Shown piece after piece: positions 10,545 through 18,400 of a stretch of 64,000 nucleotides of DNA. The DNA comes from Escherichia coli (GTDB lineage: Bacteria; Pseudomonadota; Gammaproteobacteria; Enterobacterales; Enterobacteriaceae): NCBI RefSeq assembly GCF_013315695.1, contig NZ_CP054353.1; one strand, written 5' to 3'. The notes beneath the pieces are model-generated. The model saw nothing but the letters and a program-made list of their open reading frames with translations, made no database searches and was not told where the DNA came from. How positions within the stretch are numbered: the first letter of the stretch is position 1; each line of letters starts with the position of its first letter. The translations under genes and the position numbers were made by a program.

Positions 10545-11371
10545 CAGTAGCCTTCTGAAGCGGTATCAGGTTGGAAACGTGTGTCCGCCAGGCGATGCAC
10601 CTCGGTGGTCAGCGTGCCATCAGCATGTAACTCGAGAGTACGCCAGCCGGGCGCGATGGTGTCCAGCGTAAAGTTAGAACAGTGCGGCTTAAACTGCACA
10701 CAGGTCGACGGCGTTGCCAGCAGGCGGCGACCGTTCCAGTCGAGATCCAGCTCCTGATGAATATGACCGCACAGCAAGTATTTGACGTGCGGAAACTTCG
10801 CCAGCACGGTATCCAGTTCGCCCGCGTTACGCAGGCTGTGTTGATCAAGCCAACTACAACCCGCAGGTAGCGGATGATGATGCAGCAGCAGCAACGTATG
10901 GCGTTCTGGCGCATCGGCCAGTTTACGTTCCAGCCACTCAAGCTGAAACTCGCTCAGCTCACCGTGCGGCACGCCAAACACCTGGCTATCCAGCAACAGG
11001 ATTTGCCATTGCTCACCAATAAACACCCGCTTCGCCGGGGAGATACCCGCATCCTGTAACGCGCTGTACATCGCGGGCTGGAAATCGTGGTTGCCCGGCA
11101 GCCAGACGCAGGGCGCACGAAAACTTGCGATGCCTTCAGCGAAATGCTGATAGGCCGCAGAGGATTGATCCTGCGCTAAATCACCTGTCGCGACAATCAG
11201 GTCGAATTCGTGCTGGTGTGGCCGAATCGCCTCCAGCACCGCCTGGTAGCTTTCCCAGGTGTTTACCCCTAACAGGGCTTCGTGCTTTTGCGCAAACAGG
11301 TGAGTGTCGGTAATTTGTAAAATCCTGACTCTGGCCTCACCAGCCAGAGGAAGGGTTAACAGGCTTTCCAA
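10544..11371 (-). CDS. cpdA: 3',5'-cAMP phosphodiesterase
   Basis: 275 aa metallophosphoesterase (GDLAQD, GNHD motifs). Confidence 0.9.
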
Positions 11372-11395
11372 ATGGTGTCCTTAGGTTTCACGACG

Positions 11396-11818
11396 CTAAT
11401 AAACCGGAATCGCCATCGCTCCATGTGCTAAACAGTATCGCAACCAGTCCGCTAAAAACTGATTAATTTGATGCTTTTCGTCGCGTTGATGCAACTTTTT
11501 ATTAGGATAATCATACCGCGCTTTGAAGCGAAAAATCTGCTGGCTTGAACACACTTCAGCCACCATCGCGTCATGATACAGACGCACCGTCATTGACGGA
11601 AGGCTCCAGTAACTGATCGCGGGCGCAGTCTGTTCTATTGTCACCAGGGTAGTGTATCGGGTCGATTCCACAATCGTCAGCCGATATTGTGCGTTTGCCA
11701 CCTGATAGCTTACAGTTTCGCCGGGTGCGTCATTGCGCGGTAACAAACGGCGCAATTGTGAAAAGTTCATCTCGCACAGGCGCATCATTTCAGGAAAGTC
11801 AGGTGTGTAACGCTTCAT
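11396..11818 (-). CDS. yqiB: DUF1249 protein YqiB
   Basis: 140 aa ORF in conserved position. Confidence 0.8.
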
Positions 11819-12448
11819 TTATGCCCACTCATTTTTTAACGCTTGATGATGCAGCTGCAGCCATTGCAAAGCGATGACCGACGCTGCGTTGTCGATTTTC
11901 CCCTCTTCTACCCACTGGTATGCCTGTTCCCGGCTTACCACATGAACGCGAATATCTTCGTTTTCATCAGCCAGACCGTGAATACCGCTTGCGGTCGTGG
12001 CGTCCACTTCGCCCACCATAATTGACGAACGCTCACTGGTGCCCCCCGGGCTTGCCAGGAAACTTAACACCGGTTTGGTCCGTTTGACTATCAGCCCCGC
12101 CTCTTCAATCGCTTCGCGACGGGCAACATCTTCCACACTTTCCCCCTCTTCAATCATCCCGGCAACCATCTCCAGTAGCCAGGGGGTTTCGCTAGTGTCG
12201 TACGCGGCAATTCGAATCTGCTCAATCAGCACAACTTCATCACGCACTGGGTCAAAGGGTAGCAAGACTGCGGCGTGACCGCGCTCAAAAATTTCCCGCC
12301 GTACCTCATGACTCATTTGCCCGTTGAATAGACGATGACGAAATCTATAAAGATCTAATGAAAAAAAGCCGCGATAAAGTGTTTCTCGTGCAATAATTTC
12401 TACATCGTTTTTGCCAAATGTAACGGGCAGGTTGTCTGGCTTAAGCAT
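11819..12448 (-). CDS. nudF: ADP-ribose pyrophosphatase (Nudix)
   Basis: 209 aa; Nudix box around [22 protein letters not shown]. Confidence 0.9.
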
Positions 12449-12550
12449 TGTTAATGTCCTGGCACTAATAGTGAATTAAATGTGAATTTCAGCGACGTTT
12501 GACTGCCGTTTGAGCAGTCATGTGTTAAATTGAGGCACATTAACGCCCTA

Positions 12551-12572
12551 TGGCACGTAACGCCAACCTTTT
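12551..12572. promoter_or_regulatory. candidate MarA/SoxS/Rob box in the tolC promoter
   Basis: tggcacgtaacgccaaccttttg matches my recollection of the tolC marbox; position about 80 bp upstream of the tolC start. Confidence 0.4.
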
Positions 12573-12652
12573 GCGGTAGCGGCTTCTGCTAGAATCCGCA
12601 ATAATTTTACAGTTTGATCGCGCTAAATACTGCTTCACCACAAGGAATGCAA

Positions 12653-14134
12653 ATGAAGAAATTGCTCCCCATTCTTATCGGCCTGAGCCTTTCTGGGTTC
12701 AGTTCGTTGAGCCAGGCCGAGAACCTGATGCAAGTTTATCAGCAAGCACGCCTTAGTAACCCGGAATTGCGTAAGTCTGCTGCCGATCGTGATGCTGCCT
12801 TTGAAAAAATTAATGAAGCGCGCAGTCCATTACTGCCACAGCTAGGTTTAGGTGCAGATTACACCTACAGCAACGGCTACCGCGACGCGAACGGCATCAA
12901 CTCTAACGCGACCAGTGCGTCCCTGCAGTTAACTCAATCCATTTTTGATATGTCGAAATGGCATGCGTTAACGCTGCAGGAAAAAGCAGCTGGGATTCAG
13001 GACGTCACGTATCAGACCGATCAACAAACCTTGATCCTCAACACCGCGACCGCTTATTTCAACGTGTTGAATGCTATTGACGTTCTTTCCTATACACAGG
13101 CGCAAAAAGAAGCGATCTACCGTCAATTAGATCAAACCACCCAACGTTTTAACGTGGGCCTGGTAGCGATCACTGACGTGCAGAACGCCCGCGCACAGTA
13201 CGATACCGTGCTGGCGAACGAAGTGACCGCACGTAATAACCTTGATAACGCGGTAGAGCAGCTGCGCCAGATCACCGGTAACTACTATCCGGAACTGGCG
13301 GCGCTGAATGTCGAAAACTTTAAAACCGACAAACCACAGCCGGTTAACACGCTGCTGAAAGAAGCCGAAAAACGCAACCTGTCGTTGTTACAGGCGCGCT
13401 TGAGCCAGGACCTGGCGCGCGAGCAAATTCGCCAGGCGCAGGATGGTCACTTACCGACTCTGGATTTAACGGCTTCTACCGGGATTTCTGACACCTCTTA
13501 TAGCGGTTCGAAAACCCGTGGTGCCGCTGGTACCCAGTATGACGATAGCAATATGGGCCAGAACAAAGTTGGCCTGAGCTTCTCGCTGCCGATTTATCAG
13601 GGCGGAATGGTTAACTCGCAGGTGAAACAGGCCCAGTACAACTTTGTTGGTGCCAGCGAGCAACTGGAAAGCGCGCATCGTAGCGTCGTGCAAACCGTAC
13701 GTTCCTCCTTCAACAACATTAATGCTTCTATCAGTAGCATTAACGCCTACAAACAAGCCGTAGTTTCCGCTCAAAGCTCATTAGACGCGATGGAAGCGGG
13801 CTACTCGGTCGGTACGCGTACCATTGTTGATGTGTTGGATGCGACCACCACGCTGTACAACGCTAAGCAAGAGCTGGCAAATGCGCGTTATAACTACCTG
13901 ATTAACCAGTTGAATATTAAGTCAGCTCTGGGTACGTTGAACGAGCAGGATCTGCTGGCACTGAACAATGCGCTGAGCAAACCGGTTTCCACTAATCCGG
14001 AAAACGTTGCCCCGCAAACGCCGGAACAGAATGCTATTGCTGATGGTTATGCGCCTGATAGCCCGGCACCCGTCGTTCAGCAAACATCCGCACGCACTAC
14101 CACCAGTAACGGTCATAACCCTTTCCGTAACTGA
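12653..14134 (+). CDS. tolC: outer-membrane efflux channel TolC
   Basis: ORF 12614..14134; start placed at MKKLLPILIG signal peptide (493 aa). Confidence 0.95.
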   Translation: MKKLLPILIGLSLSGFSSLSQAENLMQVYQQARLSNPELRKSAADRDAAFEKINEARSPLLPQLGLGADYTYSNGYRDANGINSNATSASLQLTQSIFDMSKWHALTLQEKAAGIQDVTYQTDQQTLILNTATAYFNVLNAIDVLSYTQAQKEAIYRQLDQTTQRFNVGLVAITDVQNARAQYDTVLANEVTARNNLDNAVEQLRQITGNYYPELAALNVENFKTDKPQPVNTLLKEAEKRNLSLLQARLSQDLAREQIRQAQDGHLPTLDLTASTGISDTSYSGSKTRGAAGTQYDDSNMGQNKVGLSFSLPIYQGGMVNSQVKQAQYNFVGASEQLESAHRSVVQTVRSSFNNINASISSINAYKQAVVSAQSSLDAMEAGYSVGTRTIVDVLDATTTLYNAKQELANARYNYLINQLNIKSALGTLNEQDLLALNNALSKPVSTNPENVAPQTPEQNAIADGYAPDSPAPVVQQTSARTTTSNGHNPFRN

Positions 14135-14281
14135 TGACGACGACGGGGCTTCGGCCCCGTCTGAACGTAAGGCAACGTAAAGATACGGGTTATCTGCCGC
14201 ATTCTTCCCCCTTCTCGCTTCAATTTCGACCAGCCATCCTCTATTCTGATGGGTATTTACCACTGGTCCCGGAAGACAAAA

Positions 14282-14953
14282 ATGAAACGGACAAAATCCA
14301 TACGCCACGCATCGTTCCGCAAAAACTGGAGCGCACGCCATCTGACACCAGTCGCTCTCGCGGTTGCCACTGTTTTTATGCTGGCGGGCTGTGAAAAGAG
14401 TGATGAAACAGTGTCTCTCTATCAAAATGCTGACGACTGTTCAGCTGCAAACCCAGGCAAAAGCGCCGAATGTACCACTGCGTACAACAATGCGCTGAAA
14501 GAAGCCGAACGTACTGCGCCGAAATACGCCACCCGTGAAGACTGTGTTGCTGAATTTGGTGAAGGTCAGTGCCAGCAGGCACCAGCCCAGGCTGGCATGG
14601 CACCGGAAAACCAGGCGCAGGCCCAGCAATCCAGCGGGAGTTTCTGGATGCCGCTGATGGCCGGTTACATGATGGGGCGTCTGATGGGCGGCGGCGCGGG
14701 ATTTGCACAGCAGCCGCTGTTCTCCTCGAAAAACCCAGCCAGCCCGGCTTACGGTAAATATACCGACGCGACGGGTAAAAACTATGGCGCAGCCCAGCCA
14801 GGCCGCACCATGACCGTACCGAAGACGGCAATGGCACCAAAACCGGCGACCACCACCACCGTTACTCGTGGCGGTTTTGGTGAATCTGTTGCCAAACAAA
14901 GCACTATGCAGCGTAGCGCAACCGGCACCTCTTCTCGTTCAATGGGTGGCTGA
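14282..14953 (+). CDS. ygiB: DUF1190 lipoprotein YgiB
   Basis: ORF 14249..14953; start at MKRTKSIRH with lipobox LAGC. Confidence 0.85.
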
Positions 14954-14958
14954 TACCG

Positions 14959-16119
14959 ATGGAAAGAGTCAGTATTACCGAGCGCCCGGACTGGCGCGAA
15001 AAAGCCCACGAATACGGTTTCAATTTTCACACCATGTACGGCGAGCCGTACTGGTGTGAAGATGCTTACTACAAGTTGACCCTCGCCCAGGTTGAAAAGC
15101 TGGAAGAAGTCACCGCCGAACTGCACCAGATGTGCCTGAAAGTGGTGGAAAAAGTGATCGCCAGCGATGAGCTGATGACCAAATTCCGCATACCAAAACA
15201 CACCTGGAGTTTTGTGCGCCAGTCATGGCTGACGCACCAGCCATCGCTTTATTCGCGTCTTGATCTGGCGTGGGATGGCACTGGCGAACCTAAGCTTCTG
15301 GAAAATAACGCCGATACGCCAACGTCACTATACGAGGCGGCGTTCTTTCAGTGGATCTGGCTGGAAGATCAGCTTAACGCCGGTAACTTGCCGGAGGGCA
15401 GCGACCAGTTTAACAGTTTGCAAGAAAAGCTGATCGATCGCTTCGTTGAGCTGCGTGAACAGTATGGCTTCCAGTTGCTGCATCTCACCTGCTGTCGCGA
15501 CACGGTGGAAGATCGCGGAACCATTCAGTATTTGCAGGACTGCGCGACGGAAGCTGAAATCGCTACCGAGTTCCTCTACATCGACGATATCGGGTTAGGT
15601 GAAAAAGGTCAGTTCACGGATTTACAGGATCAGGTGATTTCCAACCTGTTCAAGCTGTATCCGTGGGAATTTATGTTGCGTGAGATGTTCTCCACCAAGC
15701 TGGAGGATGCAGGCGTACGCTGGCTGGAACCGGCGTGGAAGAGCATTATCTCCAACAAAGCGCTTCTACCGCTACTGTGGGAGATGTTCCCGAATCACCC
15801 GAACCTGCTGCCCGCTTATTTTGCGGAAGATGATCATCCGCAAATGGAAAAATATGTGGTTAAACCGATCTTCTCCCGTGAAGGCGCAAACGTGTCGATC
15901 ATTGAGAACGGCAAAACCATTGAAGCAGCGGAAGGTCCGTATGGCGAAGAAGGGATGATTGTTCAGCAATTCCACCCGTTACCGAAATTCGGCGACAGCT
16001 ATATGCTGATTGGTAGCTGGCTGGTGAACGATCAACCTGCCGGAATTGGCATTCGTGAAGACCGTGCATTGATCACCCAGGATATGTCTCGGTTTTATCC
16101 GCATATTTTTGTTGAGTAA
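14959..16119 (+). CDS. ygiC: glutathionylspermidine-synthetase-like ATP-grasp protein YgiC
   Basis: 386 aa ORF, sequence recognised. Confidence 0.85.
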
Positions 16120-16603
16120 TACAGCTTAATATTGCCCCGATAAGCGGGGCAATCTCTTATAATCCACCATTCATAATTCCCATCAATATATAAACACATA
16201 CATATCCAACCTTTATTTAACATTAATACTCAATTTAATGTTAAATCGTCATATGCAAGCGATATTGTAATTAAAGTAAGTGAATACATCACAACATAAC
16301 TATTTGATATTATTTGAATACTTTACTTTTATCTCACCAGATTTAAATTTAATAATTAAAAAACAATGTTGCAGGGATCACACTACACAGTATTGAACAT
16401 TGTGATTGATATATTGCCCCCCTACTATCCATTAAACATAAATATTTGTTTCACCGAATAACAACATATTTAAAAGAAACACAAAAGCATTCTCACTCTT
16501 TATTGAATTAATATTCATATTCACGTAACGAATTTATTAGAACCCTCTCAACAGTCGATATTCATCATTATTATATATTTGCGTTATATAAGGAGATATA
16601 TCC

Positions 16604-18400
16604 ATGTTTGATAAATATAGAAAAACACTCGTAGCCGGAACTGTGGCGATAACCCTGGGTTTGTCAGCATCGGGGGTGATGGCTGCGGGTTTTAAACCAG
16701 CGCCGCCTGCCGGGCAACTGGGTGCGGTCATTGTCGATCCCTACGGCAATGCACCACTGACCGCTTTGGTTAACTTAGATAGCCATGTTATTTCTGACGT
16801 CAAAGTTACCGTCCATGGGAAGGGCGAAAAAGGCGTAGAAATCAGCTATCCCGTGGGTCAGGAATCACTAAAAACTTACGATGGTGTACCGATTTTTGGT
16901 CTTTATCAGAAATTTGCTAACAAAGTGACCGTTGAGTGGAAAGAAAACGGCAAGGTCATGAAAGATGATTATGTGGTGCACACTTCGGCCATCGTCAACA
17001 ATTACATGGATAACCGCTCCATCTCCGACCTACAGCAAACCAAAGTCGTTAAAGTCGCGCCAGGTTTTGAAGATCGCCTCTATCTGGTTAATACCCACAC
17101 CTTTACCGCCCAAGGTTCCGATCTCCACTGGCATGGTGAGAAAGATAAAAATGCCGGTATCCTTGATGCGGGTCCGGCAACTGGCGCACTCCCTTTTGAT
17201 ATCGCGCCCTTTACTTTCATCGTCGATACCGAAGGTGAATACCGCTGGTGGCTGGATCAAGACACTTTCTACGATGGTCGTGACCGCGATATCAACAAGC
17301 GTGGTTATCTGATGGGTATCCGCGAAACGCCACGCGGCACCTTTACCGCTGTACAAGGTCAGCACTGGTACGAGTTCGACATGATGGGGCAGGTGCTCGA
17401 AGATCACAAACTACCGCGCGGATTTGCTGACGCTACTCATGAATCCATTGAGACGCCAAATGGCACAGTATTGTTGCGCGTAGGTAAGAGCAATTACCGT
17501 CGCGATGACGGCGTACACGTCACCACCATTCGTGACCATATCCTCGAAGTCGATAAATCTGGTCGCGTTGTAGATGTATGGGATCTGACGAAGATCCTCG
17601 ATCCGAAACGCGATGCACTGCTCGGCGCGCTGGATGCAGGTGCAGTTTGCGTTAACGTTGACCTTGCCCATGCAGGACAACAGGCAAAACTGGAACCAGA
17701 TACACCGTTCGGCGACGCTCTGGGTGTAGGGCCAGGCCGTAACTGGGCGCACGTTAATTCCATCGCTTATGACGCAAAAGATGACTCAATTATTCTCTCT
17801 TCTCGTCACCAGGGTGTTGTGAAGATTGGTCGTGATAAGCAAGTGAAATGGATCCTTGCACCCTCTAAAGGTTGGGAAAAACCGCTGGCCAGCAAGCTGC
17901 TGAAACCGGTTGATGCTAACGGTAAGCCAATTACCTGTAACGAAAATGGCCTGTGCGAAAACTCAGACTTCGACTTTACCTACACCCAGCATACCGCCTG
18001 GATTTCCAGCAAAGGAACGCTCACCATTTTTGATAATGGCGATGGTCGTCATCTGGAACAACCTGCCTTACCAACCATGAAATATTCCCGCTTTGTGGAA
18101 TATAAGATTGATGAGAAGAAAGGCACCGTTCAGCAAGTGTGGGAATACGGTAAAGAACGTGGCTACGATTTCTATAGCCCAATCACCTCCATCATTGAAT
18201 ATCAAGCCGACCGTAACACCATGTTTGGCTTCGGTGGTTCTATTCATTTGTTCGATGTCGGGCAGCCAACCGTCGGTAAGTTGAACGAAATCGATTACAA
18301 AACCAAAGAAGTGAAAGTGGAAATCGACGTGCTGTCAGATAAACCCAATCAGACTCACTATCGTGCATTGTTAGTCCGTCCACAACAGATGTTCAAATAA
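16604..18400 (+). CDS. assT: periplasmic arylsulfate sulfotransferase
   Basis: 598 aa, signal peptide, sequence recognised as ASST as described in uropathogenic E. coli. Confidence 0.8.
   Translation: MFDKYRKTLVAGTVAITLGLSASGVMAAGFKPAPPAGQLGAVIVDPYGNAPLTALVNLDSHVISDVKVTVHGKGEKGVEISYPVGQESLKTYDGVPIFGLYQKFANKVTVEWKENGKVMKDDYVVHTSAIVNNYMDNRSISDLQQTKVVKVAPGFEDRLYLVNTHTFTAQGSDLHWHGEKDKNAGILDAGPATGALPFDIAPFTFIVDTEGEYRWWLDQDTFYDGRDRDINKRGYLMGIRETPRGTFTAVQGQHWYEFDMMGQVLEDHKLPRGFADATHESIETPNGTVLLRVGKSNYRRDDGVHVTTIRDHILEVDKSGRVVDVWDLTKILDPKRDALLGALDAGAVCVNVDLAHAGQQAKLEPDTPFGDALGVGPGRNWAHVNSIAYDAKDDSIILSSRHQGVVKIGRDKQVKWILAPSKGWEKPLASKLLKPVDANGKPITCNENGLCENSDFDFTYTQHTAWISSKGTLTIFDNGDGRHLEQPALPTMKYSRFVEYKIDEKKGTVQQVWEYGKERGYDFYSPITSIIEYQADRNTMFGFGGSIHLFDVGQPTVGKLNEIDYKTKEVKVEIDVLSDKPNQTHYRALLVRPQQMFK

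Follow-up and report, generated by a model that had tools for sequence, protein, structure and literature searches.

The GC-rich hairpin that lies just downstream of tolC in Escherichia coli is a real, functional and ordinary element, whose RNA 3' end, predicted fold and association with Rho can already be found in published tables. We put at roughly 60% the probability that it is the 3'-end-defining, exonuclease-blocking stem-loop of the tolC mRNA, set at a leaky, Rho-assisted stop within the tolC-ygiBC transcription unit, and on the best reading it belongs to a class that has already been described (Dar and Sorek, 2018). As TolC is the outer-membrane exit duct of the main multidrug efflux pumps of E. 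coli, the level of tolC mRNA is of some practical interest. The hairpin also accounts for reports in which tolC and ygiBC appear now as one operon, now as separately regulated genes; inducers of tolC need not induce ygiBC, and ygiBC expression may change where the hairpin is lost through a tolC deletion or fusion. Coordinates given here are those of the window, by which we mean the whole stretch of 64,000 nt that was analysed, and those of the individual features are collected in Table 1.

Table 1. Features in and around the tolC-ygiB spacer, in window coordinates, with the loci that carry REP-like palindromes in the last line.
Feature	Position	Strand	Remarks
tolC	12653..14134	+	stop codon TGA at 14132-14134; from translation and RefSeq annotation of E. 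coli records
former ygiA (b3036) ORF, 86 codons	14134..14394	+	ATG overlaps the tolC stop codon; name persists in some published tables
GC-rich hairpin, GACGGGGC-UUCG-GCCCCGUC	14142..14161	+	from sequence and folding; variable-sequence hairpin at the orthologous site in 80/80 loci
hairpin, 5' arm GACGGGGC	14142..14149	+	
hairpin, loop TTCG	14150..14153	+	
hairpin, 3' arm GCCCCGTC	14154..14161	+	
mapped RNA 3' ends	14163..14167	+	2-6 nt past the stem; K-12, supplementary tables of PMC6131387, PMC7815308 and PMC10687069
CpxR-type box, GTAAG-N5-GTAAA direct repeat, GTAAGGCAACGTAAA	14167..14181	+	invariant in 80/80 loci; probable upstream activator site of ygiBC
C-rich, G-poor tract, candidate Rho-utilisation region	14190..14250	+	23 C, 6 G; overlaps the spacer of the ygiBC promoter
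-10 element, TATTCT, of ygiBC's internal promoter	14242..14247	+	ends the conserved block CATCCTCTATYCT (alignment A1)
ygiB-ygiC transcription start	14254	+	MG1655 3179716, from SMRT-Cappable-seq (PMC6131387); coordinate verified
ygiB, DUF1190 lipoprotein gene	14282..14953	+	from the ORF list and RefSeq annotation
ygiC, glutathionylspermidine-synthase-family gene	14959..16119	+	last gene of the unit; from the ORF list and RefSeq annotation
loci with REP-like palindromes in the first ~90 nt after tolC			L005, L006, L016, L019, L020, L028, L032, L041-L043, L065

The gene order, taken from RefSeq-annotated E. coli DNA that is identical or nearly so, is nudF, then tolC, ygiB and ygiC. The tolC stop codon is followed directly by a second in-frame TGA (14135-14137), and 147 nt separate tolC from ygiB. 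A 501-nt query around the hairpin finds matches, annotated as tolC and ygiB, in 5425 of 5426 complete E. coli genomes, and positions 14100-14290 are 100% identical to K-12 MG1655, W3110 and DH5alpha. Because the spacer is identical to that of K-12, published K-12 data are directly applicable to it, the verified offset from window to MG1655 coordinates being 3165462. The window departs from MG1655 at the ygiC stop codon (from ~16115 on), the tolC-ygiB spacer staying identical; downstream of ygiC there is here an aryl-sulfate sulfotransferase gene on the same strand (ORF 16604-18400, +), in the place of the convergent ygiD of K-12, so that the source of the window is a strain other than K-12. 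Another GC hairpin that lacks a T-run, ATTGCCCCG-ATAAG-CGGGGCAAT (16131-16153), starts 12 nt past the ygiC stop codon and is followed by AT-rich sequence; at the equivalent place K-12 has a different hairpin, with a 3' end mapped at 3181617. In one MG1655 derivative (NZ_CP025268.1) the match to the spacer starts in mid-hairpin, at window position 14148, in what looks like an engineered tolC deletion that has lost the 5' arm and left ygiBC without the upstream hairpin.

The hairpin begins 7 nt past the tolC stop codon. Its stem is made up of eight perfect pairs, seven of them G-C, and is capped by a C(UUCG)G tetraloop with a C-G closing pair; it folds by itself at -16.6 kcal/mol and is retained in the MFE structure of an 81-nt context. 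The 31-nt segment that runs from the tolC stop codon to the conserved box reaches z = -3.7, with none of 200 dinucleotide shuffles folding as well, the 81-nt context by itself attaining only z = -1.75. The hairpin thus has the GC-rich stem and the short loop of an intrinsic terminator, its 8 bp falling within the range of about 5-14 bp usual for such stems, and what it lacks is the U-tract right behind the stem. The tail, TGAACGTAAGG, contains no T-run, with two T in the eight positions of TGAACGTA and one U among the first four positions of CUGAACGU. For want of this T-run, the hairpin is not called by a consensus terminator scan, and an Rfam scan of positions 11000-18000 at E values up to 10 returned a chance miRNA match only. 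A REP or BIME element, also considered, was ruled out: the hairpin is 20 nt long, single-copy and devoid of the GCC(G/T)GATG consensus, whereas REPs are multi-copy, imperfect palindromes of ~35 nt.

The window holds 28 perfect 8-bp hairpins where 6.3 are expected, and the tolC 3' hairpin is the sole one among them with at least seven G-C pairs; it is single-copy in the window and occupies a median of one place per E. coli genome. Shuffled sequence yields 0.33 hairpins of this kind (8 bp, at least seven G-C pairs) per 64 kb, and since at least one is contained in 23% of the shuffles, the presence of such a hairpin somewhere in the window is unremarkable. What is notable instead is its placement so soon after a stop codon in a spacer of 147 nt, its recurrence across genera and the RNA 3' ends that map to it. 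The non-significance of one such hairpin per 64 kb would suit the view that the palindrome is a chance occurrence, or else part of a real small gene, with no role of its own, as would the fact that an 86-codon ORF, once annotated as ygiA, overlaps it. As a gene, ygiA is rejected here, since no more than 5 of the 80 loci retain the ORF and the current K-12 annotation no longer lists it. The view as a whole, to which we give next to no credence, is already refuted by the mapped 3' ends and by the conservation of the structure, a hairpin with z far below the shuffles being found in 80 of 80 loci.

Three K-12 datasets, all from unstressed cells, place RNA 3' ends at the hairpin. Term-seq (Adams et al., 2021; PMC7815308) has an end at 3179628 (window 14166), classed as 'primary' for tolC in three of three growth conditions. 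The TRS analysis of RNAtag-seq as well as Term-seq data (PMC10687069) has it at 3179628/9, with p down to 5e-205, under the label 'alternative primary in transcription unit' and with the hairpin drawn in the table. SMRT-Cappable-seq (Yan et al., 2018; PMC6131387) reports a tolC-only primary transcript from 3178000 to 3179625 (window 14163), the end of which is called a 'novel TTS', that is, one not entered as a terminator in RegulonDB. Among the SMRT-Cappable-seq reads that begin at the tolC start site 3178000, 12 stop at 3179625, 5 do so no more than 50 bp from it, and 11 continue past the site, the median extension of these being 1029 bp; variants that span the whole tolC-ygiBC operon are listed as well (PMC6131387). 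The stop at the hairpin is real and partial, these reads putting read-through at ~40%.

The sequence-only reading had described, correctly in every detail, a perfect 8-bp stem with a 4-nt loop just past the tolC stop codon and without a U-tract. Its proposal that this is a partial terminator or an RNA-stability element, put forward without a choice between the two, is supported by the K-12 3' ends at the hairpin and by the read-through. Uniform coverage with no 3' end is the opposite of what the three datasets contain, and tolC-only and tolC-ygiBC transcripts are both present among the full-length SMRT-Cappable-seq reads. An orphan 3' end between nudF and tolC also figures in the published Term-seq and TRS tables; it is at window position 12521 (MG1655 3177983, +), and the tolC start site (window 12538) follows 17 nt downstream.

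How polymerase is brought to a stop can be approached through the scores that Adams et al. (2021; PMC7815308) assign to this end. The intrinsic-terminator score of the tolC 3' end is 1.32, where a value >3 is the cut-off for an intrinsic terminator. Its Rho score is 2.16, flagged 'Yes' as within a Rho termination region, with a regional peak of 2.30 at 3179617 (p = 1.6e-7; PMC7815308); the score is a modest one and derives from 800-nt windows, of which the downstream one includes transcripts from the ygiBC promoter. The DirectRNA-seq reads, downstream over upstream, number 110/197 without bicyclomycin and 194/161 with it (PMC7815308), so that inhibition of Rho raises read-through ~2.2-fold, an effect that a bicyclomycin-induced change in the ygiBC promoter would mimic. 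Taken together, the bicyclomycin effect and the score of 1.32 point to Rho termination with a protective hairpin, not to a self-sufficient terminator.

This is the behaviour described by Dar and Sorek (2018; PMC6061677) for a class of Rho-dependent transcripts that end precisely, just past stable stem-loops without U-rich tails, with more C than G downstream and with trimming by PNPase or RNase II. At the tolC hairpin, too, the 3' end falls just past the stem-loop, the tail is not U-rich, the sequence downstream has more C than G and inhibition of Rho gives more read-through, subject to the caveat of the ygiBC-promoter transcripts in the downstream window. At the candidate Rho-utilisation tract, the difference between %C and %G amounts over 78 nt to 23%, the 99.5th percentile of the window. 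Between the C-rich leader and the U-less hairpin there is, however, no association, the leaders of species with and without a T-run being equally C-rich (p = 0.48). As the same C>G skew is seen in T-run species, it is weak evidence for the Rho class, and the C-rich leader may owe its composition to constraints on the promoter or the leader and not to the loading of Rho. The tolC hairpin site goes unmentioned in a paper that deals with Rho mutants and TolC efflux, and in the early tolC sequence literature we found no mention of the stem-loop.

It is possible, though in our estimate unlikely, that the hairpin is instead a weak, non-canonical intrinsic terminator which, with or without NusA or NusG, brings about partial release without a U-tract, Rho having no real part in it. 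The hairpin is of the terminator type, GC-rich with a UUCG loop, its 3' ends are sharp and close to the stem, and read-through of ~40% would suit a weak terminator. The homologous hairpins of Kosakonia and Phytobacter (ACGGGGGC...GCCCCCGT) are, moreover, followed by TTTTT, and as a run of 5-7 T stands behind the hairpins at the same site in Kosakonia, Phytobacter, Entomohabitans and Cedecea davisae, that of E. coli could be an intrinsic terminator in weakened form, able even now to release part of the polymerases alone. On the other hand, E. coli RNA polymerase needs a proximal U-tract for hairpin-driven release, and the tail CUGAACGU has one U in its first four positions. The 3' ends, 2-6 nt past the stem, stand slightly closer to it than the usual 7-9 nt, the consensus scan makes no call, the score of 1.32 lies below 3, and read-through is sensitive to bicyclomycin.

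The 3' end might also come about with no termination at all, an endonuclease cutting the tolC-ygiBC mRNA in the spacer and the hairpin merely stopping 3' exonucleases, so that the two parts of the message would differ in stability, much as for the malE-malF REP. Steady-state 3'-end maps cannot separate termination from processing, many 3' ends arise by processing according to the Term-seq authors (PMC7815308), and REP-like palindromes, which are classic stabilisers, are found at the site in Salmonella, Enterobacter and Lelliottia. An effect of bicyclomycin would nevertheless be unexpected from pure processing, and for the independent regulation of tolC and ygiB, seen with BaeR and Cpx, a genuine fall in transcription together with an internal promoter is the simpler explanation; we regard processing alone as distinctly unlikely. 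Under all three of these readings (Rho with trimming, weak intrinsic termination, and processing with a barrier), the hairpin fixes and protects the 3' end.

Taken within the window alone, the case for more than chance is only moderate, and what decides it is the recurrence of the hairpin in other genomes. A YgiB-based scan gave 80 Enterobacteriaceae loci, with tolC-ygiB synteny confirmed in 79, the upstream DNA of the other (L031) being too short. A stable hairpin stands shortly 3' of tolC in all 80, including three (L018, L045 and L075) in which hairpin and box were recognised by inspection. When the MFE of each sequence is compared with that of its dinucleotide shuffles, 97% of the 68 distinct segments have z < -2, with a median of -4.3. 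The stem sequences are nonetheless unrelated between genera, reading TGTACCCGGCGC... in Trabulsiella, ACCGGCCTGG... in Leclercia, TTAGCCCGGTGCA... in Yokenella and CGGGGGCATG... in Buttiauxella. MAFFT and RNAalifold, applied to 24 hairpin-plus-box sequences, left the stems out of register and returned only a spurious 4-bp helix in the box.

That structure is conserved and sequence is not points to a function at the level of RNA and speaks against a protein site in DNA. The latter might be suspected from the fact that the hairpin is, as DNA, a perfect 20-bp palindrome 5 bp from the invariant CpxR-type box, and it would make of the palindrome a site for a dimeric protein in the CpxR-dependent control region of ygiBC, with no RNA function. 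A specific DNA site, though, would show the opposite of what is seen, namely conservation of the palindrome sequence between genera and not of its ability to pair, and the RNA 3' ends map exactly to the 3' edge of the palindrome; we consider a DNA site extremely improbable.

The cross-genus comparison of what fills the site is the modest addition that we can make to the published record. With T-run classes assigned by the strongest-hairpin method, a T-run of 4-7 stands behind the hairpin in 13 of 78 distinct loci, which belong to Kosakonia, Phytobacter, Entomohabitans, Cedecea davisae and two 'Enterobacter sp.', and these hairpins look like ordinary intrinsic terminators. The Kosakonia/Phytobacter hairpin is visibly homologous to that of E. 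coli (Kosakonia AACGGGGGC...GCCCCCGTTTTTACGTAAGG, E. coli GACGGGGC...GCCCCGTCTGAACGTAAGG). REP-like palindromes occur at the hairpin site in Salmonella, many Enterobacter, Lelliottia, Huaxiibacter and some Citrobacter, and the remaining loci, including Escherichia and most Citrobacter (in which the hairpin is identical), have a U-less hairpin. A canonical terminator, a U-less hairpin and a REP element thus stand in for one another at a single orthologous site, always directly before the invariant activator box.

Three loci of this collection are peculiar in other respects. In one Enterobacter hormaechei locus (L029) the distance from the tolC stop codon to the box is ~520 nt, and the ~450 extra bases, in which structure is very strong (an MFE of -244 kcal/mol over 523 nt), may be a palindromic repeat cluster or a small insertion. 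A MAG labelled 'uncultured Clostridia bacterium' (L002) contains E. coli tolC-ygiB DNA with a spacer 17 nt shorter, and an entry labelled 'Chryseobacterium sp.' (L046) contains Enterobacteriaceae DNA; both are probably mis-binned or contaminated assemblies.

The box itself begins 5 nt past the hairpin stem, and the gap is 1-6 nt in many genera. The CpxR consensus is GTAAA-N5-GTAAA, with which GTAAG-GCAAC-GTAAA agrees at 9 of 10 positions, and nowhere else in the 64 kb is GTAAR-N5-GTAAA matched, the number expected being 0.15. The box is a tandem repeat whose centre lies at about -80 relative to the start site at 14254, within ~100 bp of the promoter. The -10 element ends 7 nt ahead of the mapped ygiBC start site, for which 195 and 175 reads were obtained in two conditions (PMC6131387). 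Between box and -10 element (TATYCT) there are three classes of spacing, 37-39, 48-50 and 59-60 bp, and such steps of one helical turn are as expected of an upstream activator site. In C. rodentium a putative CpxR site has been reported between tolC and ygiB, and there a ygiB-lux reporter was Cpx-dependent and a tolC-lux reporter was not; these lux reporters were afterwards made anew in a clean strain. In the papers that we consulted we found, for E. coli, neither CpxR binding at the box nor Cpx dependence of ygiBC. The ygiBC promoter is an independent one, probably activated by Cpx.

With a promoter and a CpxR-type box of its own, ygiBC leaves the hairpin as only one of several setters of the tolC:ygiBC ratio. 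Neither the promoter nor the box figured in the sequence-only reading. Its suggestion that the hairpin could set this ratio holds insofar as the partial stop contributes to it and fails insofar as the stop does not act alone: the ratio is set by read-through at the hairpin together with the independent ygiBC promoter. When BaeR was overproduced, tolC rose 1.9-fold and ygiA, ygiB and ygiC were not raised, while for persister cells it was reported that the expression of ygiA, ygiB and ygiC went along with that of tolC, which indicates that read-through can be substantial. Both the BaeR data and this reported co-variation upon strong induction of tolC agree with read-through plus a promoter proper to ygiBC.

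On the preferred reading, in which Rho-assisted release is combined with a protective hairpin, RNA polymerase would exit tolC, transcribe the hairpin and enter the untranslated, C-rich spacer of 147 nt. Part of the polymerases would be released with the help of Rho, in the spacer or in early ygiB, and 3'-to-5' exonucleases would next shorten the tail as far as the UUCG hairpin, the product being a stable tolC-only mRNA that ends 2-6 nt past the stem. The other polymerases would read through to give tolC-ygiBC mRNA, and the hairpin may in addition shield the ygiBC promoter, which starts 5 nt downstream, from upstream traffic. One can extend this scheme by supposing that the close and conserved spacing of hairpin and box is itself functional, and that CpxR-P, bound at 14167-14181 under envelope stress, both activates ygiBC and blocks the polymerases arriving from tolC, so that more 3' ends are formed at the U-less hairpin; in that event ygiBC would pass from being transcribed along with tolC to stress-driven, independent expression. 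Such a roadblock seems to us very unlikely, its geometry being unfavourable: a block at 14167 would be expected to halt polymerase with its active site close to 14150, where the hairpin is still incomplete, and the mapped ends lie at 14163-14167, although they were mapped in unstressed cells.

Among known systems, the U-tract-less 'I-shaped' terminators proposed for mycobacteria, the activity of which is disputed, resemble the tolC hairpin in that a U-tract-free hairpin coincides with a transcript end; the Rho dependence at tolC, however, argues against release of E. coli RNA polymerase by the hairpin alone. The intercistronic REP, or stem-loop, of malE-malF reportedly acts as a stabiliser that gives rise to differential mRNA stability within the operon, as Newbury et al. 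are said to have described in 1987. There, as here, the upstream message of a multi-gene unit is favoured by a stable structure behind its gene, but the tolC hairpin is a single-copy structure of 20 nt without the REP consensus, and there is evidence at tolC for a real, Rho-linked drop in transcription. With canonical intrinsic terminators the tolC hairpin shares the GC-rich stem, the extra-stable UUCG tetraloop and the position shortly past a stop codon; it differs from them in that the copy of E. coli and Citrobacter has CUGAACGU in the place of the U-tract, scores 1.32 (<3) and is sensitive to Rho.

The resemblance to the class of Dar and Sorek extends to the stable GC stem-loop just upstream of a precise 3' end, to the absence of a U-rich tail and of an upstream A-tract, to the C>G composition downstream and to bicyclomycin-sensitive read-through. 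Trimming by PNPase or RNase II is a feature of that class, and for the tolC hairpin we infer it from this kinship. What sets the tolC site apart is that its stop is leaky and lies within a transcription unit, with the promoter of the downstream genes starting only 5 nt past the stem.
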